32,000 bases of DNA from an archaeon GW2011_AR10 (GCA_000830275.1 CP010424.1:150001-182000); one strand, 5' to 3'; positions 2,023 to 29,762 are shown, counted from the stretch's first letter. Notes: a model not told the origin generated them from the letters alone. Numbers and translations are program-made.

Positions 2023-2841
2023 TCACATCACTCCAGCCAAAAACGCGATTAATGCGATAAACATTGCGATTTTGCTGAGTTCCTGAGAGGCCTTTGCATC
2101 TTTTTCCGCCAGTTTTGCACCAGCGTACAAGAAAATTCCGCCTGCTGCAAGTGTTAGAAAAAGGAAACCCGCTCCTTTAAGCATTCCAGAAAACCAAACA
2201 TACAATGCAATAGAAATTCCTGCAATGTAACTGCCAAAAACAGCTAGGTTAATCTGCTCTATTGGCAGAATCATTGGCAGTGTTTTCTTGAAGCCTTTTT
2301 CTGCTGAATCCTCAACATCTTTTGTTATTTCCCTGCCTAAGCTGGAGAAGAAAGCGCTTGCAGCCAGCAAAACCACAACAGAATAGTTTCCTGAAACGCT
2401 TGCGCCAAACACAAGTGTTATGGCTGTTGACATTGCAATCAAAGCGTTGCCGAAGTACTTGTGCTGCGGCGTGTAGGCTGAATAAGCCAGCAAAAGCAAA
2501 CTGAACAATACTGCAATCAGGAAAGCAACCTCGTTAATGAAAAATGAAATGGTTATTCCGATAAGGAAAAGCATTACGGAGTAAAGGAATGCAGCCTTGC
2601 TTTCAATGTGCCCGGCCGGAATCGGCCTGAAAGGCTTGATTTTCCTGTCAATGCGCCAGTCAAAGAAATCGTTCACTGCCTGCCCTGCACCGCAGATGAG
2701 GAAAGCTGAAACCATTGCAAGAAAAACCTGAAAAGAAAAACCAATGCTGCCAACTGAAACAGCGTAGCCGATGAAAACAGCAAATGCGGCCATAAAGCAG
2801 TTGAACGGCCTCAGTATTTCAAAAAAATGCTCCAAGCCCAT
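2023..2841 (-). CDS. UbiA-family prenyltransferase, likely digeranylgeranylglyceryl phosphate synthase
   Basis: 272-aa polytopic membrane protein with the Asp-rich motif NDFFDWRIDR. Its size is typical of archaeal DGGGP synthase. The substrate assignment is inferred. Confidence 0.7.
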   Translation of the reverse strand: MGLEHFFEILRPFNCFMAAFAVFIGYAVSVGSIGFSFQVFLAMVSAFLICGAGQAVNDFFDWRIDRKIKPFRPIPAGHIESKAAFLYSVMLFLIGITISFFINEVAFLIAVLFSLLLLAYSAYTPQHKYFGNALIAMSTAITLVFGASVSGNYSVVVLLAASAFFSSLGREITKDVEDSAEKGFKKTLPMILPIEQINLAVFGSYIAGISIALYVWFSGMLKGAGFLFLTLAAGGIFLYAGAKLAEKDAKASQELSKIAMFIALIAFLAGVM

Positions 2842-2894
2842 TTTCTCACTATATTTAATGATACAAGAGTATTTTATAACTTTTAGCGTTAGGT

Positions 2895-3653
2895 TTAACC
2901 GCCTAAAATCAGTTCCAATAGCTTTTTTTTGGGGTTCTTCTGTATTGGCGAAACAACAGTGAGTTTCCCTTTCCCGAACCTTCTCTGCAACTCTTTTTCC
3001 CCAATTTCACTGACGCTCTGCCCTGAAACCATTTTCGGTTTTAGGGGGTCTCTTTCATGCGGCAAAAAAATAAGTTTTCCAAGTTCGACAACACGCGGCT
3101 GAAAGGATTCAGCTGAACGGTCAGCCGAAAAAACTGAACCAAGCCATGCTGATGCGATTATGTTTGCATTAGTTGTTTTTTGCTTGATTGCATATCTGAG
3201 TCTTGAGGGACTGGCTTCAGTGTAAATGCTTTTTCTTCCAAGCCTAAAAAACTTGCTTGCCCTTGAACTGTTGCTTCTCATGGGATACTTTCCGCTTTCC
3301 AAAACAAATAATCCTGCCCTTTTTTTTCCAACAAGCACTATGCCGTCATCAAGCGGCCTGATAGAATCATTTTTTATTAATCTCCTCAAAGTCGTTGACT
3401 TCCCTATTCCTTGAGGGCCGCTTACAACAACTGCCCTGCCATTTCTTTCCATGGCAACTCCATGGAATAAGTACAGGTCGGTGAAGCCAAATTGTTTCCT
3501 TAAATCCTCCACTTCTTTCCAGCTGAAGTCCCTGCCTTCAAAAACCCGGTAATGAATTGAAACAGCTCCTTTTGGAAGTTTTCTGTTTTCTCGTTCAACT
3601 GATTTCTTCCAGCTCTTCCAGGCCTTTTCCTTCAGCCGCTTTAAAATTAGCAT
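2895..3653 (-). CDS. P-loop protein resembling the HPr kinase/phosphorylase C-terminal domain (HprK-related kinase-like)
   Basis: 252-aa ORF. The segment FHGVAMERNGRAVVVSGPQGIGKSTTLRRLIKNDSIRPLDDGIVLV parallels the HprK pattern LHGV..G.GVLI.G.SGxGKS..L.LI.RGH.LVADD. Confidence 0.45.
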   Translation of the reverse strand: MLILKRLKEKAWKSWKKSVERENRKLPKGAVSIHYRVFEGRDFSWKEVEDLRKQFGFTDLYLFHGVAMERNGRAVVVSGPQGIGKSTTLRRLIKNDSIRPLDDGIVLVGKKRAGLFVLESGKYPMRSNSSRASKFFRLGRKSIYTEASPSRLRYAIKQKTTNANIIASAWLGSVFSADRSAESFQPRVVELGKLIFLPHERDPLKPKMVSGQSVSEIGEKELQRRFGKGKLTVVSPIQKNPKKKLLELILGG

Positions 3654-3776
3654 TTGTTTCAGAAATATTTTGCTCCAACCCCTAATTAATTGTTTCTTTC
3701 ACTTGCGATTCAATGGTTTTGGTTAATTCAACTAAACAAATTTAAATAACTTACTGCATTATTTCTACTGGTTTGA

Positions 3777-4907
3777 ATGGTTGAGTTTGACAGGTTTGGG
3801 CCGGAGAAAATACTGAGAGTTTACAACCCCAAGGTTGGAATGCGTGGTTTTCTAGTTGTTGACAATGCTTCGCTTGGCCCGGGCAAAGGCGGCATCAGGA
3901 TGACTCCGACAGTTTCAGTTGGCGAAGTTGCAAGGCTTGCAAGGGTCATGACCTGGAAAACTGCGTTGGCTGAACTGCCCTTCGGCGGCGCGAAAGCAGG
4001 GATTGTGGCTAACCCAAAAACAATGACGCAGCAGCAGAGAAAAGAAATCGTTCAGGCTTTTGCGAAGGCGCTTAAGCTGGTTTCCCCGAAAATCTATATT
4101 GCTGCTCCTGACATTAACATGGGAGAGCAGGAAATGAGGTGGTATGTTGAGGCGAACGGCAGCCTGAAGAGTGCAACAGGAAAGCCCGCAAACATGTGCG
4201 ACAAAAATGGTAGAAACTGCGGTTTGCCGCACGAGCTCGGCTCAACAGGCTTAGGGATTTACAATGCAGCAGTGATTGCAGCAAAGCATGCCGGCATGGA
4301 ACTGGAGAATGCAAGCATTGCAGTTGAAGGCTTTGGAAACGTTGGCTACTTTGCGGCAAAGTACCTTTCTGAAAAAGGTGCAAAAATTGTTGCGGTTTCA
4401 GATTCCCGCGGCCTAATTTACAACAAGGCAGGAATTGAATTCGAAAAACTTGTGGACGTGAAGAAAAAAACCGGCACAGTTGCCGAGTACAAGCCCGGCA
4501 CGGTTTTTCCTTCCAGCAAAATAATTTCCCTCCCAGTTGACGTTCTTGTTACGGCTGCAATCCCGGACCTCATAAAGGAAGCCGATATTCCGGAAATTAA
4601 AGCCAAAATAATTGTACAGGGATCAAACATTCCAATGGAAAAGCACGCAGAGGACAGGGCGCATGAGAAAAAAATTTTGGTTGTGCCAGACATTGTAGCC
4701 AATGCTGGCGGAGTTATTTCCTCTTACGCTGAATTTAGGGGAGAAAACGCCAAAACAATGATGAAGATTGTTGAAGCAAAAATCAAGAAAAACACGGAAC
4801 TGGTTTTGTCAAACGCTGAAGCGCAGGGAACCACGCCAAGGGATGCTGCCTTGGAAATCGCGCGCAGCAGAGTTCTCAAAAAATGTGAATGGTGCGGAAC
4901 CAATTAA
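3777..4907 (+). CDS. Glu/Leu/Phe/Val dehydrogenase family enzyme, glutamate dehydrogenase-like (short, 376 aa)
   Basis: Carries GPGKGGIRM, PFGGAKAGI and the dinucleotide-binding motif VEGFGNVGYF. A TATA-like AAATTTAAATAA lies ~30 nt upstream. Confidence 0.8.
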   Translation: MVEFDRFGPEKILRVYNPKVGMRGFLVVDNASLGPGKGGIRMTPTVSVGEVARLARVMTWKTALAELPFGGAKAGIVANPKTMTQQQRKEIVQAFAKALKLVSPKIYIAAPDINMGEQEMRWYVEANGSLKSATGKPANMCDKNGRNCGLPHELGSTGLGIYNAAVIAAKHAGMELENASIAVEGFGNVGYFAAKYLSEKGAKIVAVSDSRGLIYNKAGIEFEKLVDVKKKTGTVAEYKPGTVFPSSKIISLPVDVLVTAAIPDLIKEADIPEIKAKIIVQGSNIPMEKHAEDRAHEKKILVVPDIVANAGGVISSYAEFRGENAKTMMKIVEAKIKKNTELVLSNAEAQGTTPRDAALEIARSRVLKKCEWCGTN

Positions 4908-6015: not shown

Positions 6016-7041
6016 ATGGTTGTCCTCATGAAAAAAACCATTTCACTCCTGTTAGTTGCGCTTTTTCTTTTTTTTGGCTGCACTGCTCCGCAGCCACAGG
6101 AAAAAACCTTGACGATTTACACTTATGATTCAATGGTTTCAGAATACGGTTTAGGGCCAAAAGTTGTGCCAAAATTTGAGGAAGAGTGCGGCTGTAAAGT
6201 GAACATGGTTGCATTGGGGGATGCAGGGCAAGTGCTTAACAGGGCAATAATTGAGAAAAACAATCCAAAAGCCGATGTCATAATCGGGGTTGACAACAGC
6301 CTTGCATCAAAAGCAATTGAGGCAGGAATATTTGAGCCTTTTGTTCCAAGCAATTTTGGAATTGTGCCGCAAGACCTGCGATTTGATGCAACAAACAGCT
6401 TAATACCATTTGATTACGGCTTCATTGCCTTTGTTTATGATTCCGAAAAAGTTGGTTTTGAGCCGAAGAGCTTTGAAGACTTGCTGAGGCCAGAACTTGA
6501 GAAAAAAATTGTTGTAGAAAACCCTAGGACATCTTCTCCGGGGTTGGCGCTTTTGCTCTGGACAGTTGCAGTTTACGGTGACCCAGGCTACAAGGATTAC
6601 TGGGAAAAGCTCAAGCCCAATATTTTGACAGTTACGCCTGGATGGGATGAAGCAGCAGGGATGTTCCGTGCCGGAGAAGCACCGATTTATTTGAGTTATG
6701 CCACTTCCCCGCCTTATTACGTGGAATTCGAGGGCATAACAACTTTCAGGGTAGCAACCTTTGAGGAAGGGCATTACCTGCAAGTAGAGGGCATGGGCCT
6801 AGTGAAAGGGGCAAAAAACAGGGAACTGGCAAAGCAGTTCATTGAGTTTGCCTTAACGGAATCTTTCCAGGAAGAAATACCCTTAAATCAGTTTATGTTC
6901 CCAGTTAATCAGGAAGCAGAGCTTCCTCCTGCGTTTGATTATGCTGCAAGGCCATCCAAAAAGGTCTTGCTTGATGATGCGCTTGCAGAGGAAAAGCAAG
7001 AGGGATGGATTGCTGAATGGGAAAAAATAATGTCCTCCTGA
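6016..7041 (+). CDS. ABC importer substrate-binding lipoprotein, thiamine (TbpA/ThiB) / Fe(III)-type family
   Basis: 341-aa ORF with a signal peptide and lipobox-like LFLFFGC. The fold family is inferred from the operon with a two-EAA permease and an ATPase. Thiamine specificity is inferred from the adjacent TPK. An alternative start is the ATG at 6028 (MKKTISLL). Confidence 0.7.
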   Translation: MVVLMKKTISLLLVALFLFFGCTAPQPQEKTLTIYTYDSMVSEYGLGPKVVPKFEEECGCKVNMVALGDAGQVLNRAIIEKNNPKADVIIGVDNSLASKAIEAGIFEPFVPSNFGIVPQDLRFDATNSLIPFDYGFIAFVYDSEKVGFEPKSFEDLLRPELEKKIVVENPRTSSPGLALLLWTVAVYGDPGYKDYWEKLKPNILTVTPGWDEAAGMFRAGEAPIYLSYATSPPYYVEFEGITTFRVATFEEGHYLQVEGMGLVKGAKNRELAKQFIEFALTESFQEEIPLNQFMFPVNQEAELPPAFDYAARPSKKVLLDDALAEEKQEGWIAEWEKIMSS

Positions 7042-12485: not shown

Positions 12486-12710
12486 CAGAAACCTTTAAAA
12501 ATCAAGATAATGTCTAATATATAGGAACAAATTAACACTTACAGGATTCCAAGAGTGTTATTTTTCCACGCACGCTGCAACGCTTTGTTGTAGCGTTCAA
12601 CGGATTTTACCAATTCTATTGGTAGGCATTGCGCCGCTTTTTCACAGTTAGATATGAGCATCCAAGCTTTTTTGGATGTGATGCAGGCAACCGGTTGATG
12701 CAAGAAGTTT

Positions 12711-12768: not shown

Positions 12769-14252
<1,484 letters not shown>

Positions 14253-14395
14253 TCAATCTATTACGAAAAAAATGTTTCGTAATGTTGGAACTTGTTCCTG
14301 CAAGCTTTTGATTGCATTAGCCGGTTTGCCTGTTGCAAAAAAAAAATTTGGCTCTGCAACGGGTTCGTGCTTGCTGGCTGAGGCCTGTTGAAGTC

Positions 14396-14468
14396 GGGCT
14401 CTTAGCTCAGCTGGTAGAGCGCCTCGTTTGCAACGAGGAGGCCACGAGTTCGAATCTCGTAGAGTCCA
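14396..14468 (+). tRNA. tRNA-Ala(UGC) in the 16S-23S spacer
   Basis: Clean cloverleaf: GGGCTCT TA GCTC AGCTGGTA GAGC G CCTCG TTTGCAA CGAGG AGGCC ACGAG TTCGAAT CTCGT AGAGTCC A. The G3:U70 identity pair is present. Confidence 0.95.
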
Positions 14469-14469
14469 T

Positions 14470-14515
14470 AAACGGAAACCTCCGTTTACGAGGTATGCCA
14501 TGCGTTGCATGGCAT
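14470..14515 (+). repeat. Two-hairpin module, copy E, immediately 3' of tRNA-Ala
   Basis: Sequence AAACGG-AAACCT-CCGTTT ACGAGG T ATGCCATGC-GTT-GCATGGCAT. It is near-identical in architecture and partly in sequence to copy D at 19609-19652. Confidence 0.7.
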
Positions 14516-14695
14516 TGGTTCGCTTCGCTCACAAAAGCAGGGAAGTCAGCCGGCACCTTGTATGTGTCCTTCCTTCAGAAGGACAGTAATACGGGGAAAA
14601 AAATTGTCGCTTACAAAATTGTTGTAAGGTCGCCGTTCAAAGATTTTTTTGAACGGTGCAACGCGCATTACATTTTTTTTGTTTTGCGTTGGTTG

Positions 14696-14727
14696 CTGCA
14701 TTGGTAGGTTCATCAGTTTAAGAATTC
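14696..14727 (+). other. 5' strand of the pre-23S processing helix with a canonical BHB motif (partner 17769-17800)
   Basis: The 11-bp helix pairs CTGCATTGGTA with TACCAATGCAG. The central helix pairs GGTT with AACC. The 3-nt bulges are CAT (14711-14713) and TAA (17787-17789). The inner helix pairs CAGTTTAAGAATTC with GAGAACTCTTAAACTG, with one mismatch. Confidence 0.75.
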
Positions 14728-17700
14728 TGCAAGCCATTTAGTGGATAACTAGGCTCAAGGGCTGACGAAGGGCGTGGCAAGCTGCGATAAGCCTTGGCGA
14801 GCTGCATGCAAGCATTGAACCAAGGATTCCTCAATTGTTCCGAAAGGAACGGTAACGCAGGGAATTGAAGCATCTTAGTACCTGCAGGAAAAGAAAGAAA
14901 CCTCGATGCCCTTATTAGGGTCGACCGAAAAGGGCAGAGAACAAACCGAATCCTGCATGGCAACATGCGGGAAATGTGGTGTGCTTCAGGTACTTCCCTT
15001 AAAATCAGCTGAAGTCAACTGGAATGTTGTGCCATAGAGCGTGAAAGCCGCGTAAGCAAAGTTTTTGGGGAAGATTCCTGAACGTAAGAGTATGGCGCGT
15101 TGGATCTCGCGTCAGAAAATGCGAGCCATTAACTCGCAATTCTAAATACCTCTTGAGTCCGATAGAGAACTAGTACTGTGAAGGAAAGTTGAAAAGCACC
15201 CTTAGCGGGGGGTCAAAAGCGCTTGAAACTAAATGGCCACAGGGAGGCACGGCTCGAAAGAATAGACGCTTTTCGAAGTGAAGGTTTCAAAGAACCGGAA
15301 CGAGTTAAGCTGATCAGGGTTGTGCCGTACGTCCTGAAGCACGAGCGAGGGAATTAATGGTTGTGGCAAGGCTAACTGCTTCACGCAGGAAGCCGAAGCG
15401 AAAGCAAGGTTCCGCAGTTTCGATGAGGGAACAGGTACTCAAGTGCCTGAGTCACAGCTTTTAGACCTGAAGCCAGGTGATCTACTCTTGGGCAAGGTGA
15501 AGCCAATCAACCGATTGGTGGAGGCCTGCAACTAGTGTTAGTCCAACTGCTTAGGTGACCTGAGAGTAGGAGTAATATGCCATTCGAACCTGGCAATAGC
15601 AGGCTCCTTCCGAAGTAGCTCTAAGGCTAGCCTGGCTGGAGATAAATTGTGGTGTAGAGATACTGATTAGAAAGTACTGGTTGGAAACTTCCAGCTTTCT
15701 TGTCAAACTCCGAATCTGCAATTATCGTAGAAGGCCAGAGTAGGGGCACCGGCGTAAGGTCAGTGCCCTAAAGGGAAAGAACCCAGACTGAGGTTAAGGC
15801 CCATAAGTGCTGGTTAAGTGTAACGTGAAAAGCGTCGTTATCCTAAAACAGTAGGGAGGTTGGCTTAGAAGCAGCCATCCTTTAAAGAAAGCGTAACAGC
15901 TCACCTACCTAGGATGACGGCCTTGAAAATAATCTGGGCTAAACCAGCTGCCGATACCCCGGAATGCCAGCTGTGCTGGTAGTTTGGTAGGAAGGTGCTC
16001 TAATGGAGCAGAAGCAGGGAAGTGATTTCCTGTGGATCTGTTAGAGATATGGATCCTCGCGATAGTAATGATAAAGAGAGGTGAGAATCCTCTCCGTCGA
16101 AAGGGCTAGGGTTCCTTAGCGCTAATCGTTAGCTAAGGGTTAGTCGATCCTAAAGTGAACCGTAACACGAGTTCACTGAATGGGAAACAGGTTCATATTC
16201 CTGTACCATGCAAATACGTTCGGCAACGATTGCTCGTTTTTCGACGCTTTGGGTTAGGCCAAGCACACTTGTCTGTGTGTTTAACTGGCATAAATCTCTG
16301 GAGAGCCATAATGGCGAGAAAGAGATTAAAGCTAGGAATAGCTGCAAAGTTTGGCTGAGACCTAGAGCCCCTGAAAAGAGAAACGAGATGGATTTTGCAT
16401 GTCCGTACCAAGAACCGAGAAAGGTGCCCCTGGCTGAGAAGGCCAAGACGTCGCAGGGTAACCCCGTCAAGGGAATTCGGCAAATTAGCCCCGTATCTTC
16501 GGTATAAGGGGTGCCTATAGTTGCATAAACTATAGGTTGCAATAACAAGGGGAGTCCGACTGTTTATTAAAAACACAGGTGACCGCAAGCCAGAAATGGT
16601 GTGTATGGTTGCTGACTTCTGCTCACTGCCAGTACGTGAAACTCTCGTTCAAGAGAACTAAGCGCTGGTGAAGAGCGGGCCTAACTCTGAGGCTCTCACG
16701 GTAGCGTAATACCTTGCCGGTTTATTGCCGGCTTGCACCAAGGAAGTAACGAGATTCCCAATGTCCCTGAGGGGGGCCTGATGAACTCACTTCCCGGTGA
16801 ATATGCCGGGGATCTCCAATGGGAAGAGAAGACCCCACGGAGGTTTACCACAGTCTGATGCTGCGGTTTGGTTTTTAATGTGGAGCGTAGATGGGAGTCC
16901 TAGAAGCAATTTCGCTAGGAATTGTGGAGACAACAATGGAACACCATCCTTTGAGGACTAAATCGCTAACTTGAAAGAGGACAACATTTGATTTGGTGGT
17001 TGGGCTGGGGTGGCACGCCCCTGAAAAAGTATCAGGGGCGCCCAAAGGTCTGCTCATCCGAGTCAGAAATTCGGAGTGGAGTGCAAGAGCAAAAGCAGGC
17101 TTGACCATGGTCTACAAAGCAAGGAACGTGGATTCGAAAGAAGGGTCTAGCGAACGTCAGTGTGCCCTTTAATGGGGCCCTGGTCTGACAGTGAACTTAC
17201 CCTGGGGGTAATTGAGTGGTCGCGGGTGAGAGTCCATAAGCCTTTTCTTTTTCAAAAAGAAAAGCCTTGGGAAAAGAAAAAATTTTTTTCAAGGAAAAAT
17301 TAATGAAAAAGATGGCTGGATTTATCGACCCCGCGGTTTGCGACCTCGCCGTCGTCTCAAGGCATCCTGGCTGTGCATAAGCAGCCAAGGGTGGAGGTGT
17401 TAACTCATTAAAGCCTTACGTTAGTTGGGTTGAGAACGGTGCGAGCCAGTTTGGATACTATCTATTGGAGATGTTGAGTGCCTGAAGGGAAGATCCATTG
17501 AGTACGAGAGGAACGATGGGTCGTGGCCACTGCTTTGCCAGTTGTCTGACAAGGCATTGCTGGGTAGGTACGCCATAGCTTATAAGAGCTGAAGGCATCT
17601 AAGCTCGAAGAAGCCCCTGAAAAGAGGCACTCATTCCTGAATCAGTTTGTCCTCCGGGGCAGATTGTGTAGGGACGAGAGTGACGCTAAAAGAGCGGTTT

Positions 17701-17786
17701 GATAGGTGAGAAGTGTAAGCTGGAAGCTTCGGCGACCAGTTAAGCTAACTCATACTAAGAACTCGAGAGAACTCTTAAACTGAACC
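14714..17786 (+). rRNA. 23S rRNA (span delimited by the BHB; mature ends a few nt further in)
   Basis: Contains GAAGGGCGTGGCAAGCTGCGATAAGCC near the 5' end. Also present are GAAGACCCCACGGAGGTTTACC and a PTC region, GGGGGTAATTGAG..ATCGACCCCGCGG..GGGTTGAGAACGG, that aligns with archaeal 23S. No 5S follows. Confidence 0.9.
17238..17323 (+). other. 86-nt AT-rich, ORF-less insertion in the 23S helix-89 loop; candidate BHB mini-intron
   Basis: The central helix pairs GTCC (17232-17235) with GGAT (17318-17321). The bulges are ATA (17236-17238) and TTA (17322-17324). The inner helix pairs AGCC (17239-17242) with GGCT (17314-17317). Removal gives GAGAGTCCAT|ATCGAC, the same length and pattern as the consensus H89 loop GAGAG(C/U)(U/C)CAUAUCGAC. 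Confidence 0.6.
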
Positions 17787-17805
17787 TAATACCAATGCAG
17801 TAACT

Positions 17806-17940
17806 AAACCTTTTAGGAAAAGGTTTGCGAAAATGTGCTTTCGGCTGAAACCAAAGGTTTTACAAGGAGGCTTATCAAAACGCAGCTTCGCAAAAACCTT
17901 TTTTTTGAAAGGTTTATCAAAATGTGCTTTTGGCTAAAAC
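17806..17940 (+). repeat. Tandem array of about three two-hairpin modules (A, M, B) in the 23S 3' trailer
   Basis: A (17806-17852) is AAACCTTTT-AGG-AAAAGGTTT GCGAAAA TGTGCTTTCGGCTGAAACC. B (17894-17940) is AAACCTTT-TTTTTG-AAAGGTTT ATCAAAA TGTGCTTTTGGCTAAAAC. M (17853-17899) is a degenerate copy containing GGCTTATCAAAACGCAGCTTCGCAAAAACC. Confidence 0.7.
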
Positions 17941-17951
17941 TCATTAAAAAA

Positions 17952-19244
17952 TTATTTTTTTTCCTTCGTTTTGCTTTCAAAGCTTTCTCTTAACTCTTTC
18001 CTTGTCTTAAACTGTTCCGGGTGTTTTTTTCTAAGTATGTCCAGCTGCCGTCTTCTTTCCTTTTCATACAAAATGTTTGGCAACTCCCAGTCAGGGTGTC
18101 TTTTTTGAATTCCTCTCACAACTTTCTCATCTGAAAGCCTTCTTAAAAGGCCTATTCTTGTTTTTGCTCCTAAAAGTTTCATTAACTCTTCTTCTGATGG
18201 CCCATACAAAGGCTTTCCGATTACATCACTAATTTCACTTCTTTTTGTTCTTTTCAGCCCCGCCTTGTTGTATGCATTTTCTGCTGCGGCTTCATATAAT
18301 CCGTTAATTGCACTAGGGCCTCTTCTTAACTTTCCTGGCTGATCTTCTATCATTCTTTTAAGTTCTTCCTGAAAAATTTTTTGAATGTCCGTTGAAAAAG
18401 ACGATGACTGCCTTGCCAGTGCTCTGTACTCTTCAATTTCCTGAGGGGTTCTTTTTTGCAAAAAATCCGGTGTTATGTTTTTTTGTGCTGCAATTTTCTC
18501 AGTTAAAACTTTAGCTGCTGTTTCAGCCGATATCAAGTCCTGTTCAATTGCAACAGCAATAGCGCTGTTAAGATTTTTATTGTCGCTGTTAAATTTTAGC
18601 AAATCCGAGACTCGTTTTTCAGGAAAATTTTTTGGAAGAAAACCATGCTTTTTCATTTCTCCCAGCCAAAAAACATATTCTTCCAAGCGAGCGCTCCTTG
18701 TCCTCAACTTTTGCATAATGTCGTGAATTCTTTTAAGAGAGATTTCAAACTTATCGCCCTTAAACGAAGTTTCCCCTTGTTTTTCCATTGATTCCAGAGC
18801 TTTTAACAAAGCTCCAAATAATGGTTCCTTTCTGAGCAAAAAAATGTTGTATTCAGGAGAATAAGTTCCAAATTCTGCTCCGGGAAACTTATAGTGAATA
18901 ATTACTCTTTCCCTCACCCTTTTATGGAAAGGAATTTCAACTGGTTTCACGCGAGAAATTTCTAGTCCCTTATTCAATGCCTCACGGGCTCTTTGCTGCT
19001 GTCGCTTTATTTCTTCCACTTGCTTAAAGTGTGCCTCAACCCTTCTCCTTGCTTCAGCTCCTTCCGTTTTAGTAAGCGCTTTCTGCTTCCTTTCCAACCC
19101 ATAAATTGCCAGCCTGGCACCATCAATAGTTTGAGGCGCTTTCCTTGAACGAGGCCTAAGTGCCATTTCAACTGCGGTATTAATTCTATCTGCCCTAGTT
19201 GGCAGCATTGTTATTATTTTTCTTCTCCCGCTGTTTCTGCGCAT
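17952..19244 (-). CDS. Hypothetical highly basic, charged protein (430 aa), orphan
   Basis: Long uninterrupted ORF, Arg/Lys/Glu-rich throughout and predicted helical. The N-terminus is MRRNSGRRK and the C-terminus is KTKEKK. No catalytic motif is recognised. It is divergent from RNase P RNA. Confidence 0.7.
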   Translation of the reverse strand: MRRNSGRRKIITMLPTRADRINTAVEMALRPRSRKAPQTIDGARLAIYGLERKQKALTKTEGAEARRRVEAHFKQVEEIKRQQQRAREALNKGLEISRVKPVEIPFHKRVRERVIIHYKFPGAEFGTYSPEYNIFLLRKEPLFGALLKALESMEKQGETSFKGDKFEISLKRIHDIMQKLRTRSARLEEYVFWLGEMKKHGFLPKNFPEKRVSDLLKFNSDNKNLNSAIAVAIEQDLISAETAAKVLTEKIAAQKNITPDFLQKRTPQEIEEYRALARQSSSFSTDIQKIFQEELKRMIEDQPGKLRRGPSAINGLYEAAAENAYNKAGLKRTKRSEISDVIGKPLYGPSEEELMKLLGAKTRIGLLRRLSDEKVVRGIQKRHPDWELPNILYEKERRRQLDILRKKHPEQFKTRKELRESFESKTKEKK

Positions 19245-19284
19245 ATAAAAGCAATGATTTTGAACTTTAACTTGCTTTCGGTCA

Positions 19285-19294
19285 GTTTAAATAC
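19285..19294. promoter_or_regulatory. TATA box between the divergent orphan gene and RNase P RNA
   Basis: GTTTAAATAC has a palindromic TTTAAA core. It is centred ~28 nt upstream of the RNase P RNA 5' end and ~45 nt upstream of the ATG at 19244 on the other strand. Confidence 0.45.
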
Positions 19295-19316
19295 CTTTAA
19301 TGACGCAATTATTATT

Positions 19317-19608
19317 GGAGTAGCAGGAGGCTGGCTGACGGTGCTGATTCATTTCGGCGCTGAGGAAAGTCCGCCCACTCAAACCTTTTAAAAAAAAAGG
19401 TTTACGAAAAAACTGCTTTTGGCAGAAAAATCACTCTTGAAAAGGAGTCCCAGGGAACAGAAACGGTACCCATTCATTTGGGTTGAAACGCGCCTTGGGT
19501 TGAACAAGCAGTCAAATGCTTGGGAGTGCAAGTTCAAGTAACGCTAAGGTGAATGCCGGCAGCCCTGCTTGCAGGGGTAACAGAAGGCGGCTTACTCCCT
19601 GCTGCTCC
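19317..19608 (+). ncRNA. rnpB: RNase P RNA (archaeal type, compact)
   Basis: P1 pairs GGAGTAGCAGG with CCTGCTGCTCC. CR-I is GAGGAAAGTCCGCC, which pairs with GGCGGCTTAC of CR-V to form P4. ACAGAAGGCGGCTTA matches CR-IV/V. GGGAACAGAAAC and CTAAGGTGAA are S-domain-like elements. Confidence 0.8.
19381..19431 (+). repeat. Two-hairpin module, copy C, inside RNase P RNA just after CR-I
   Basis: Sequence AAACCTTTT-AAAAA-AAAAGGTTT ACGAAAAAA CTGC-TTTTG-GCAG AAAAAT. It is flanked on both sides by CACTC (19376-19380 and 19432-19436). Confidence 0.65.
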
Positions 19609-19652
19609 AAAACCTTATTCGGTTTACGAATGTGCCATGCATTGCATGGCAC
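19609..19652 (+). repeat. Two-hairpin module, copy D, immediately 3' of RNase P RNA
   Basis: Sequence AAAACC-TTATTC-GGTTT ACGAA T GTGCCATGC-ATT-GCATGGCAC. It is followed by another hairpin, AGCTCG-TCTT-CGGGCT. Confidence 0.7.
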
Positions 19653-19739
19653 TAGCTCGTCTTCGGGCTCGTAAAACAGAAGCTAATTTTTATCTTGCTG
19701 AAATCGGTTTTAAATGCTTTTTCTTGGAAGGTTTTAGTA

Positions 19740-21542
19740 ATGCCTACGTCCGATAATGTAAGGGAAAAGTTCTTGAAGTTCTTCAAGGAAAAAAAGCACG
19801 CAATTATTCCGAGTGCCTCGCTTATTCCTGAGAACGATCCCACTGTTTTGTTCACAACCGCTGGAATGCACCCTCTAGTGCCTTTTCTGCTTGGCGAACA
19901 GCATCCAAGCGGAAAGCGCTTGGCAAATTTCCAGAAATGCGTTAGAACAGTTGACATTGATGAGGTGGGAGACAGATGGCACTTAACCTTCTTCGAAATG
20001 CTGGGCAACTGGAGTCTGGGGGATTACTTCAAGAAGGAAGCAATTGAGTGGAGCCACGAGTTTTTAACCAAAAAAAAGTGGCTTGGGTTTGACTCTGAAA
20101 GAATCCATGTTTCCTGCTTTGAAGGCGACAAGGACGCGCCAAAAGACGCTGAAGCAGCAAAGGTCTGGCAATCACTTGGAATTCCATCTGAAAGAATTCA
20201 CTTTTACTCCAAGAAAGAGAACTGGTGGGGCCCGGCAGGCCAAACAGGTCCCTGCGGTCCAGATACTGAAATGTTTTATGACACAAAAAAAATTTCCCAC
20301 AAAGGAGAGTGCGGGCCGTGGTGCAGTTGCGGAAGGTTTGTGGAGGTGTGGAACGATGTTTTCATGCAGTACAACAAGACTGCTGAAGGAAAGTTTATTC
20401 CATTGAAACAGAAAAACGTTGACACAGGAATGGGTTTGGAAAGAGTGGCAGCGGTAATTGATGGCCTTGATTCAGTTTTTGAAACAGATTTGATGGTTGG
20501 AGCGTTCAATAAAGTAAAAGAGCTTGGAAACCAAAAGCTTGTTGAAAAGAACATGAATTCTGTCAGGATAATAACCGATCACCTGCGCGCTGCGGCTTTT
20601 ATTCTTGGGGATGAAGTGGGCATTGTTCCAAGCAACGTTGACCAGGGCTATGTTGTAAGGCGCCTGATTAGGCGCTCAATCAGGCATGCAAGACTGGTTG
20701 GAATTGAAGGCCATTTTACAAGTGAAGTGGCAGGGGAAGTTGTCAAGCGCTTTCAGGGAATTTACCCCGAATTAAGGAAAAGCAGGGAAAGGATTTTCTC
20801 GGAGCTTGACAGGGAGGAAGCCAAGTTCCTTAATACGATTCATAAGGGCTTGAGTCTTGCTCAAAAAGAAATTTCTGCACTGGAAAAAGAGGCCAAAACT
20901 GTTTTCCCAACAAAAGCTGCATTTGACTTATACCAAAGCTTTGGTTTCCCTATTGAAATGACTGAAGAAATTGTGCGCGAGAAAGGGTTTAAGTTAAACA
21001 AGGAAGATTTCTTCAAGAAATTGGCGGAACACCAAGAGCTCTCCAGAAAAGCAACAGAGAAAAAATTCAAGGGAGGCCTTGCAGACACGCAGAGTAAAAC
21101 AATTAGAATGCACACTGCAACCCATTTACTTCATGCGGCCTTAAGGAAAGTTCTAGGGGAACACGTTGCACAGAAAGGCTCAAACATCACCACTGAAAGG
21201 CTTAGGTTTGATTTTTCTCATCCTGAAAAAGTTCCTGAAGAAAAACTAAGGGAAGTAGAGGCTTTGGTTAATGAGAAAGTAAGGGAAGGGTTAAGCGTTA
21301 AAATGGAGGTAATGTCTCCGCAGCAGGCAAAAAAGGACGGAGCAATAGGGTTGTTTGCGTCAAAGTATGGTGAGAAAGTCAAGGTTTACACTGTGTTTGA
21401 CCAGAAAACAGGAAAGTTTTTTTCAAAAGAAATTTGCGGCGGCCCGCACGTGAACAACACAAAAGAAGTTGGAAAATTCAGGATAGTTAAAGAGGAAGGC
21501 ATTTCAGCAGGAGTGCGCAGAATAAAAGCAGTGGTAGAATGA
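19740..21542 (+). CDS. alaS: Alanyl-tRNA synthetase, bacterial-type, short form (600 aa) ending after the editing domain
   Basis: N-terminal motifs are FTTAGMHP, QKCVR and HLTFFEMLGNWSLGDY. Editing-domain motifs are HTATHLLH and CGGPHV. The protein ends at GVRRIKAVVE. The ATG at 19740 (MPTSDNVREKF) is preferred over the track start at 19695. Confidence 0.9.
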   Translation: MPTSDNVREKFLKFFKEKKHAIIPSASLIPENDPTVLFTTAGMHPLVPFLLGEQHPSGKRLANFQKCVRTVDIDEVGDRWHLTFFEMLGNWSLGDYFKKEAIEWSHEFLTKKKWLGFDSERIHVSCFEGDKDAPKDAEAAKVWQSLGIPSERIHFYSKKENWWGPAGQTGPCGPDTEMFYDTKKISHKGECGPWCSCGRFVEVWNDVFMQYNKTAEGKFIPLKQKNVDTGMGLERVAAVIDGLDSVFETDLMVGAFNKVKELGNQKLVEKNMNSVRIITDHLRAAAFILGDEVGIVPSNVDQGYVVRRLIRRSIRHARLVGIEGHFTSEVAGEVVKRFQGIYPELRKSRERIFSELDREEAKFLNTIHKGLSLAQKEISALEKEAKTVFPTKAAFDLYQSFGFPIEMTEEIVREKGFKLNKEDFFKKLAEHQELSRKATEKKFKGGLADTQSKTIRMHTATHLLHAALRKVLGEHVAQKGSNITTERLRFDFSHPEKVPEEKLREVEALVNEKVREGLSVKMEVMSPQQAKKDGAIGLFASKYGEKVKVYTVFDQKTGKFFSKEICGGPHVNNTKEVGKFRIVKEEGISAGVRRIKAVVE

Positions 21543-29529: not shown

Positions 29530-29672
29530 ACTAGAATTTTTAGAAAGTAGAAATGCCATAAAGGATTAATACGGGCCAGGAGGAGTCCAAAATCAGAAAA
29601 ACCCAAGGTTTTTCCGACACCTTTTCCTCCATAAATTTTTTACTGAATTTATTGTAATGTTGCGTGTCAAAG

Positions 29673-29762
29673 CGGACCCGGAGGGATTCGAACCCTCGAC
29701 CTGCTGCTTTCCTCCGTGGAAGCATTAGAAGGCAGCTGCCCTATCCACTAGGCTACGGGTCC
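29673..29762 (-). tRNA. tRNA-Arg(UCU) with a canonical 37/38 intron
   Basis: The reverse complement reads GGACCCG TA GCCT AGTGGATA GGGC A GCTGC CTTCTA[intron]A GCAGC AGGTC GAGGG TTCGAAT CCCTC CGGGTCC G. The anticodon TCT lies at 29729-29727. Confidence 0.85.
29709..29725 (-). other. 17-nt canonical intron of tRNA-Arg
   Basis: The intron is ATGCTTCCACGGAGGAA. The central 4-bp helix pairs CTTC (nt 32-35) with GAGG, flanked by the 3-nt bulges T36-A37-a and a-a-A38. Confidence 0.75.

Follow-up and report, generated by a model that had tools for sequence, protein, structure and literature searches.

Stable RNA genes and two-hairpin cassettes in the window

The DNA analysed here, called the window, is a stretch of 32,000 nucleotides from the archaeon GW2011_AR10 (GCA_000830275.1, CP010424.1:150001-182000). 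It carries genes for 16S and 23S rRNA, a tRNA-Ala gene in the spacer between them and a gene for RNase P RNA, and a family of short cassettes, each consisting of two hairpins joined by a purine linker, lies within and beside these genes. The window is 99.98% identical to NCBI assembly GCA_013332025.1, and identical proteins are encoded on groundwater contigs from the Rifle aquifer. Its source is a small DPANN archaeon of the Diapherotrites/Iainarchaeota. The nearest homologues of its alanyl-tRNA synthetase (AlaRS) are labelled Candidatus Diapherotrites, and the next relative reaches only 70% AlaRS identity. Related loci, each read over about 20 kb, are named by locus number (L001, L013, L016 and so on); the window genome was covered by the window and about 16 kb of extra flank, approximately 48 kb in all. 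The stable RNA genes and cassette copies are as follows.

12769-14252, plus strand: 16S rRNA gene (Rfam)
14396-14468, plus strand: tRNA-Ala(TGC) gene in the 16S-23S spacer, host of copy E (Rfam tRNA, 72.4 bits; ARAGORN)
14469-14515, plus strand: copy E (pattern match; minimum free energy (MFE) z = -4.2 to -4.4; D-E nhmmer E=4e-4)
14718-17778, plus strand: 23S rRNA gene (Rfam)
17238-17323, plus strand: diverged seventh copy, inserted in 23S rRNA at the tip of helix 89 (86 nt, AU-rich; L019-only profile, E=0.014)
17806-17851, plus strand: copy A (pattern, repeat finder, fold; independent L019-only profile, E=6e-5)
17848-17893, plus strand: segment M, a 5-bp AAACC/GGUUU hairpin plus ..GGCUUAUCAAAACGCAGCUUCGC, at best a degenerate copy (MFE z = -0.9)
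17894-17940, plus strand: copy B (76% identity to A over 46 nt by repeat finder; A-B nhmmer E=4e-4)
19319-19606, plus strand: archaeal RNase P RNA gene, host of copies C and D (91.9 bits with Rfam RF00373, whose gathering score is 84; aligned with four relatives)
19381-19425, plus strand: copy C, within RNase P RNA (pattern, fold, RNase P alignment; L019-only profile, E=2e-4)
19610-19660, plus strand: copy D (pattern, nhmmer; MFE z = -4.6 to -5.0)

Copy E begins 1-2 nt past tRNA-Ala. It is built of hairpin 1 UAAACGGA-AACC-UCCGUUUA, linker CGAGGU and hairpin 2 AUGCCAUGC-GUU-GCAUGGCAU, with a possible outer helix reaching to about 14526. The processing helix of 23S rRNA pairs 14696-14727 with 17769-17800, and copy A starts 5 nt past its 3' strand. 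In copy A, hairpin 1 (AAACCUUUU-AGG-AAAAGGUUU) is followed by GCGAAA-AUGUGC-UUUCGGC, which represents the outer helix only, the apical hairpin 2 being reduced; in copy B, hairpin 1 (AAACCUUU-UUUUUG-AAAGGUUU) has a T8 run inside and is followed by AUCAAAAUGUGCUUUUGGC. Copy C occupies the P8 position of RNase P RNA, between the strand of conserved region I (CR-I) and P7 (CCCACUC) and P9, and consists of hairpin 1 AAACCUUUU-AAAAA-AAAAGGUUU, linker ACGAAAAAA and hairpin 2 CUGCU-UUU-GGCAG. P12 of the same RNase P RNA is shrunk to a few nucleotides. Copy D starts 3 nt past the end of the Rfam RNase P model; its hairpin 1 is AAACC-UUAUUC-GGUUU, and an outer helix, ACGA/UCGU, surrounds hairpin 2, GUGCCAUGC-AUU-GCAUGGCAC.

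In the 23S rRNA insert, AAGCCUUUUCUUUUU-C-AAAAAGAAAAGCCUU precedes the linker GGGAAAAGAAAAAA; the insert neighbours the peptidyl-transferase region. Its borders have no bulge-helix-bulge, so that an expansion segment, and not an intron, is the probable interpretation. Besides this diverged copy, no other was found elsewhere in the window or in the extra flank, and the window copies, about six or seven, all lie within one 5.2-kb stretch.

Support for the family inside the window

The pattern AAACS-N(3-14)-SGTTTRYSA occurs at exactly five sites of the window (14470, 17806, 17894, 19381 and 19610), all on the plus strand, against 0.13 expected from shuffles, and 0 of 100 shuffles reached five. 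Since the pattern was composed after the copies had been seen, this shuffle test is partly circular. The repeat finder aligned A with B over 46 nt at 76% identity, at a spacing of 89 nt, and the hairpin of D with that of E over 27 nt at 85%; A and C were also joined. Single-sequence nhmmer searches of the 32-kb window connected A with B (E=4e-4), A with C (E=3.5e-3) and D with E (E=4e-4).

An earlier note, made from the sequence of the window alone, had claimed E, A, B, C and D as related copies, placing E at tRNA-Ala, A outside the 23S helix, C in RNase P RNA and D past the RNase P 3' end. These copies lie where it put them, and the pattern and the pairwise nhmmer matches confirm that they are related; the two subfamilies it had recognised, A/B/C and D/E, are likewise those separated by nhmmer. 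Its view that the copies form one related family is supported. A/B/C and D/E do not match each other directly in nhmmer: common to them are only the plan and the 10-mer GGTTTACGAA, found in C and D. Segment M, claimed as a further copy, had no nhmmer match to any copy in the window (E>1), and its fold is weak (z = -0.9). Tandem Repeats Finder reported no array at 17806-17940. The supposed tandem array of A, M and B is two clear copies, A and B, flanking a degenerate spacer, M.

Against dinucleotide shuffles, MFE z values were -4.2 to -4.4 for E, -4.6 to -5.0 for D and -2.6 to -3.6 for C, while A, B and M fold weakly (-0.7 to -2.2). Most copies of the family as a whole have values of -3 to -5.

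Anatomy and covariation

The cassette is about 45-70 nt long and is composed of hairpin 1, the purine linker RCGAAAA(..UACGUCG) and hairpin 2. Hairpin 1 is usually xxCCUUUU...AAAAGGxx, in which a U-run is paired with an A-run and closed by G-C pairs; in the variant AGCC...GCCU, a C-C mismatch recurs in four genomes. The linker is single-stranded, with the sequence RCGAAAA or GGGAAAA, after which UACGUCG often stands. The stem of hairpin 2 measures 5-9 bp and its loop 3-4 nt. A short outer helix (GCGAA/UUCGC; ACGA/UCGU in D) surrounds hairpin 2 in several copies, namely D, E, L019 P2 and L013, and is not general; A and B retain the outer helix only. Internal loops of stem 2 are AU x UAGC in D, AAAAUA x UAUAUGC in L019 P2 and UACGUCG x CAUAAAUA in L013 and L204.

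Both stems keep pairing while their sequences change, so the compensatory changes that the earlier note proposed to look for are present. Hairpin 2 occurs with nine unrelated stem sequences, all of which pair, with 3-4 pair types per position. Among its inner cells, 58 of 63 are Watson-Crick, compared with 26.8 +/- 5.5 (maximum 47) in 5000 partner shuffles; the stems were picked in part for pairing, their position being anchored by the linker. Covariation of hairpin 2 is thus strong. G-U pairs are scarce, at 12 of the 436 predicted pairs across 24 copies. MAFFT alignments of the copies were structurally inconsistent, because hairpin lengths differ and inputs of equal length slipped by one column; nhmmer profiles and a gapless structural alignment with pair counts were therefore used in place of a covariance model.

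Distribution among relatives

The exact D/E hairpin 2 was found at 59 loci in 185,579 species genomes (54 bacterial, five archaeal), mostly bacterial and unrelated. In the sequence collections, exact matches to the pattern are mostly unrelated bacterial terminators, REP-like elements (repetitive extragenic palindromic, REP) and one long palindrome family; about a dozen archaeal loci of the cassette family are among the matches listed, and viral contigs, plasmids and phages gave nothing relevant in these scans.

In the metagenome-assembled genome (MAG) of Candidatus Iainarchaeum, both hairpin-2 matches belong to two-hairpin modules, which begin 2 nt past tRNA-Lys(CTT) and tRNA-Gln. Their hairpins 1 differ and covary, the linker is GGGAAAAC or GGGGAAAAACC, and hairpin 2 is identical (GUGCCAUGC-GUU-GCAUGGCAC). 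Because the search was blind to RNA genes, these two matches are unbiased evidence for a link with stable RNAs. The same hairpin 2, preceded by another hairpin, is present in the uncultured-archaeon loci L026, L028 and L038 and, among the matches listed, in the metagenome contigs L117/L146 and L135. An identical hairpin 2 is shared by L037 and L042, and L028 has two tandem units.

Some contigs with the GUGCCAUGC hairpin, among the matches listed, contain dense arrays of differing GC-rich hairpins: L146 has several within 240 nt (1-240), L028 has two 72-nt tandem units (3650-3888), and L147 has three repeats at 2400-3250 (71% GC). Two other groups of elements are built around the 8-nt arms TGCCATGC/GCATGGCA as their core: an unrelated family of long palindromes, GTGACCCTTGTGG...CCACAAGGGTCAC, seen in many metagenome contigs, and REP-like elements of Burkholderiales genomes (among the matches listed, such long palindromes or REP-like elements were seen at L086, L094, L109, L137, L168, L171, L182, L195 and L199, and at L044, L057, L063 and L093). 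These are probably independent uses of the palindrome.

The A/B/C nhmmer profile matched L019, a Diapherotrites MAG with 62% AlaRS identity. In the reverse check, a profile built from L019 only ranked A (E=6e-5) and C (E=2e-4) at the top of the 32-kb window, with the 23S insert third (E=0.014). The RNase P RNA of L019, 440 nt long (14217-14656, minus strand), harbours four copies: the first directly after CR-I, at the same site as C; the second in P12, inverted; the third in the P15-17 region; and the fourth directly at the 3' end, where D is placed in the window. Two more copies are situated shortly 5' of protein genes, giving six in 22 kb. The RNase P RNA scores 70.3 bits in Rfam, under the gathering score of 84; it is the inserts that bring it below this score, and standard annotation would therefore miss such genes.

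L204 (65% AlaRS identity) has a module 1 nt past tRNA-Ala and another after 23S rRNA that ends in a T7 run, GCAAAAAGCAUUUUUUU. L017 has an inverted partial copy within RNase P RNA. At the helix-89 tip of 23S rRNA, a homologous two-hairpin insert of 86-95 nt is present in the window and in L017, and L016 has the empty site GAGAGTTCAT|ATCGACC. The position and plan of the tRNA-Ala module recur in L204 and in the foreign spacer of L013; L016 has them in diverged form. Contig L013 (1-8757) is identical to the window through 16S rRNA, beyond which its spacer, which is GC-rich, its tRNA-Ala and its 23S rRNA are different ones. The assembly probably joined two genomes at the conserved 16S gene to give a chimera, whose foreign part still bears a two-hairpin module after tRNA-Ala. 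L042 contains a free-standing copy (6690-6760, minus strand), in which a TATA box, TTTAAATA, is followed by the module, CAUAAAUA and T6; this copy and the module in the tRNA-Ala trailer of L013 share about 75% identity. In L117, a TTTAAA box lies about 12 nt 5' of a three-hairpin unit.

Other relatives lack the module at the corresponding sites. P8 is only about 15 nt in L001 (neighbouring protein 62% identical) and L017 (AlaRS 66%), and an unrelated long UUCG-capped hairpin stands at the P8 site of L016 (70%). A T-run directly follows RNase P RNA in L016, L017 and L204, different and unrelated hairpins follow it in L001, and no A-M-B array was found after 23S rRNA in L001, L016 or L017. These absences in L001, L016, L017 and L204 indicate that the modules are not universal parts of these RNAs.

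Association with stable RNA genes

At loci of the Iainarchaeota type, about 19 of approximately 24 copies are either within the gene of a tRNA, an rRNA or an RNase P RNA or at most 5 nt away from such a gene. About 21 of 23 copies are in sense orientation. This includes all eight trailer copies, which start 0-3 nt past the mature RNA end, as the modules behind tRNA-Ala, tRNA-Lys and tRNA-Gln do. Several sites are occupied in two genomes each: after 23S rRNA (window and L204), the 3' end and P8 of RNase P RNA (window and L019) and the helix-89 tip (window and L017).

The association reported in the earlier note therefore recurs in independent genomes (the Iainarchaeum MAG, L019, L204 and L017). 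Its statement that the modules are attached only to stable RNA genes does not hold: two copies in L019 are 5' of protein genes, the L042 copy is free-standing, and two copies are inverted in RNase P RNA. Nor is attachment to RNA genes a rule, as three of the four tRNAs of the window genome (tRNA-Arg, tRNA-Leu and tRNA-Ser) have no module, only T-runs or other hairpins. The link with stable RNA is neither exclusive nor universal.

Comparison with known elements

As the earlier note had supposed, no described RNA family was found to correspond to the cassette. At gathering thresholds, the only thresholds at which copy E was scanned, Rfam 15 reported only rRNA, tRNA and RNase P RNA in the window. 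At E up to 10 over 17700-19800, only sub-threshold miRNA and sRNA noise, scoring far under the gathering thresholds of the families concerned, was obtained over A/B and hairpin 1 of C, and nothing over D, so that no Rfam family covers the modules. A literature search found, in the papers covered, no match to the hairpin-2 sequence, to insertions in RNase P RNA of DPANN archaea, or to archaeal REP-like elements at tRNA genes.

REP sequences, which form BIMEs (bacterial interspersed mosaic elements) and REPINs, are short imperfect palindromes of bacteria that are mobilised by RAYT proteins and occur extragenically, many per genome and often in tandem. The cassette resembles them in being a short, genome-specific imperfect palindrome, single or in tandem, which would be co-transcribed at gene 3' ends and could form transcript-protecting hairpins. 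It differs in being archaeal, in having two different hairpins and a conserved purine linker, in residing at stable RNA genes rather than mRNA ends, and in its low apparent copy number. Copy counts are six to seven in the 32-kb window and six in 22 kb of L019, many of them inside RNA genes. No Y1_Tnp, RAYT or IS200/IS605 was present among the Pfam labels of genes within the loci read, and no GTAG-like 5' flank was seen; the conserved flank is the 3' linker RCGAAAA.

STRR repeats, short repetitive sequences arrayed in tandem, reportedly occur within cyanobacterial RNase P RNA, as described by Vioque in 1997, and intervening sequences occur in bacterial 23S rRNA. Like the cassette, both are lineage-specific inserts, located at the tips of helices in RNase P RNA or 23S rRNA, that vary among relatives, but each is confined to one host RNA, whereas the cassette appears in tRNA and rRNA trailers, RNase P RNA and 23S rRNA. 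Rickettsia felis has 728 Rickettsia palindromic elements (RPEs), 85 of them in open reading frames (ORFs) and 3 in RNA-coding genes (PMC1166351). RPEs are comparable as small palindromic repeats of a reduced genome that invade functional genes, RNA genes included, and are tolerated at peripheral structure. They are, however, longer, bacterial and mostly intergenic or in protein genes, and the cassette is mainly in stable RNA genes.

The K-turn/L7Ae module is reused in archaeal rRNA, RNase P RNA and small RNAs, and the cassette is similar in that a single small RNA module serves several RNAs. It is not a K-turn, because the stem-2 internal loops of D, L019 P2, L013 and L204 lack GA on both strands, and thus tandem sheared G-A pairs, and also lack a 3-nt bulge. 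In plant tRNA-snoRNA dicistrons and in MALAT1/mascRNA, RNAs are released by tRNA-end processing. The likeness here is that a structured RNA abuts a tRNA or tRNA-like end, so that a tRNA-processing cut could define its end; unlike mascRNA, the modules are not tRNA-like and have copies inside RNAs as well. ARAGORN and Rfam RF00005 matched true tRNAs only, which excludes a tRNA mimic.

Several further classes were rejected. A miniature inverted-repeat transposable element (MITE) in the strict sense does not fit, as the filled helix-89 sites of the window and L017, compared with the empty site of L016, have no flanking direct repeat, the palindromes are internal and no autonomous element was seen. 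The borders of C and of the 23S insert show only a 2-nt bulge or a plain helix extension and not an archaeal bulge-helix-bulge intron. The class of intrinsic terminators suits the L204 23S and L042 copies and fails for E, C, D and the RNase P copies of L019. A CRISPR array is excluded by the Tandem Repeats Finder result at 17806-17940, by the 76% identity of A and B and by the dispersal of the copies, and an H/ACA pocket was rejected from reading of the loops. By class, the cassette is a short palindromic repeat, or RNA expansion cassette, in an unusual habitat.

Proposed origin and role of the cassette

The leading explanation, held with a little less than even confidence, is that the cassette is a copy-and-paste, self-folding repeat of the REP/MITE-like kind which is kept in transcribed, non-core parts of stable RNAs and acts there as a 3' cap or expansion segment. 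New copies would arise inside the genome by copy-and-paste and would survive almost only in transcribed parts outside the functional core of stable RNA units: immediately past the ends of tRNAs and RNase P RNA, in the spacer and trailer of rRNA, and at the helix tips P8, P12, P15-17 and helix 89. The cassette would be co-transcribed and fold independently, either capping the 3' trailer structurally or forming an expansion segment, with possible effects on RNA stability or end formation. Duplicative spread as a DNA repeat is suggested by the likeness of copies, greater within a genome than across genomes (A/B/C and D/E; L019 P1/P2/P3; L037/L042), tandem copies (A/B of the window; L028), the two inverted copies, the patchy distribution and the near-absence of G-U pairs. 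Among the alternatives offered by the earlier note, namely a signal, a mobile element or both, "both" seems the most likely.

Other observations weigh against this explanation. The loci read yielded neither a transposase or RAYT-like gene nor terminal inverted repeats or a target-site duplication, and the viral, plasmid and phage collections yielded no copy. That all eight trailer copies are in sense orientation, 0-3 nt from the mature RNA end, is unexpected for blind DNA insertion. Four genomes whose AlaRS shares only 62-70% identity have the tRNA-Ala module, with conservation of the single-stranded motifs ACGAAGUACGUCG and CAUAAAUA; this combination looks like purifying selection on a function at the RNA level. 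One copy, in L042, has its own promoter-like TATA box and T6 terminator, and the copy number in about 48 kb (about six or seven, in one 5.2-kb stretch) is low, unlike classical REP families.

The main rival, rated less likely, makes the cassette a dedicated RNA-level module: one protein's docking site that can be transplanted, or else a signal for processing or stabilisation, common to pre-tRNAs, pre-rRNA, RNase P RNA and the ribosome. Copies would then be present since the RNA needs them, with duplication as their mere origin, in parallel with the reuse of K-turn/L7Ae in archaeal ribonucleoproteins. The sense orientation of about 21 of 23 copies, the exact placement of the trailers, the maintenance of both stems through compensatory change and the conservation of the single-stranded linker across genomes (RCGAAAA, UACGUCG, CAUAAAUA) are all consistent with it, as are the retention of the module after tRNA-Ala in four divergent genomes and at P8, the RNase P 3' end and helix 89 in two each, and the independent TATA-to-T-run unit of L042. 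Inversion of two copies, however, turns the purine linker into UUUUUCGC. Close relatives manage without the module at the same sites, with a T-run directly after RNase P RNA or 23S rRNA, as do three of the four tRNAs of the same genome. Two sequence subfamilies coexist within one genome, and it is unusual for helices selected as RNA to have so few G-U pairs. Neither a K-turn with its tandem G-A pairs nor a loop-E or a bulge-helix-bulge was recognised in the modules, and the partner protein would be a hypothetical one.

An improbable variant combines mobility with such a role: a mobile unit specific to RNA genes might insert at exposed 3' ends and helix tips by an RNA-level route or by transcription-coupled DNA insertion, seed expansion segments of rRNA and RNase P RNA, and perhaps carry a docking site for a DPANN protein. 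The RNA-level route could consist of an endonuclease cut and RtcB-type ligation, or a step resembling reverse splicing, followed by fixation in DNA; the docking partner would be a DPANN protein common to the ribosome, RNase P and pre-tRNAs.

A small non-coding RNA riding behind tRNA or RNase P RNA, freed by tRNA 3' processing and with its own promoter in some genomes, is slightly more doubtful still. Trailer copies begin exactly at the tRNA 3' end, as this would require, and the L042 unit (TATA box TTTAAATA, module, CAUAAAUA, T6) and the TTTAAA box about 12 nt 5' of the three-hairpin unit of L117 could be independent genes, with putative promoters called by sequence reading. Copies within RNase P RNA and 23S rRNA, though, are not releasable in this manner, and no guide-like or informative conserved loop was seen in the copies.

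Oligo-T is sufficient for transcription termination in archaea. Two oligo-T runs of the window are placed as follows.

17955-17962, plus strand: T8 run, likely end of the rRNA primary transcript (sequence reading)
19687-19691, plus strand: T5 run 3' of copy D, likely terminator of the RNase P RNA transcript (sequence reading)

The T8 run abuts the stop codon of a convergent ORF of 430 aa (17952-19244, minus strand) and may act as an archaeal oligo-T terminator; the same role is presumed for the T5 run. That the cassettes themselves are terminators, or a bidirectional terminator region, of stable RNA genes is very unlikely. In hairpin 1, the 5' arm often contains a T4-T8 run and the 3' arm an A-run, so that both strands have T-runs; the 23S module of L204 has GCAAAAAGCAUUUUUUU at its end, copy B holds a T8 run, and A-M-B lies between convergent genes. 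Yet E, with no T-run, stands in the 16S-23S spacer, where transcription must proceed into 23S rRNA; C and the P1, P2 and P12-site copies of L019 are within RNase P RNA; D has no T-run, and a separate T5 follows 35 nt later; and, as oligo-T alone suffices, a hairpin is not needed.

That AU-rich spacer hairpins in a low-complexity region resemble one another by chance can be dismissed almost entirely: although A, B and M fold no better than shuffles, A/B/C and D/E are not significantly alike by sequence, and palindromes are over-represented in genomes (54 bacterial loci match the hairpin-2 pattern), it is contradicted by the strongly positive covariation test, by cross-genome profile matches (E=6e-5 and 2e-4) and linker motifs common to the genomes, and by the filling of the same sites in independent genomes, with both Iainarchaeum matches directly after tRNAs.

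Neighbouring genes

The 430-aa ORF, which lies between the genes for RNase P RNA and 23S rRNA, encodes an orphan protein very rich in Lys and Arg. Pfam and NCBIfam gave no match for it, and only one other cluster was found among 5.8 billion proteins (62% identity, L001, same synteny). It may bind RNA. As a partner of the module it was rejected, since its sole homologue is in L001, without modules at those sites, and the L016 protein at this place is unrelated.

The AlaRS gene starts at 19741 (Pfam-confirmed). Autoregulation of AlaRS through the palindrome of copy D was considered and rejected, as relatives with the same RNase P-AlaRS synteny have no D. AlaRS (19741-21542) is a short form of 600 aa, and homologues at 57-60% identity are labelled Patescibacteria/CPR bacteria (candidate phyla radiation, CPR) as well as DPANN archaea, which suggests that this AlaRS type is shared or transferred.

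Introns were observed in three tRNA genes: 17 nt in tRNA-Arg(TCT) of the window (29672-29762, minus strand), 80 nt in tRNA-Ser(GGA) of L329 (18788-18954) and 21 nt in tRNA-Ala of L204 (2021-2114); CCA is not encoded in any of the three. About 265 nt 5' of 16S rRNA, at 12489-12505, the TATA-box-like sequence AAACCTTTAAAAATC resembles the hairpin-1 5' arm of copies A-C and may be part of the rRNA promoter.

Significance

The cassettes would be the first known family of repeats or RNA modules common to tRNA trailers, rRNA trailers, RNase P RNA and 23S rRNA in one archaeal lineage. They offer a concrete case of how stable RNAs gain expansion segments and peripheral helices, and they bear on the handling of stable RNA 3' ends in the reduced genomes of DPANN archaea. 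If a partner protein or a mobility mechanism exists, the family would represent new biology; otherwise it would be an unusual but ordinary selfish repeat.

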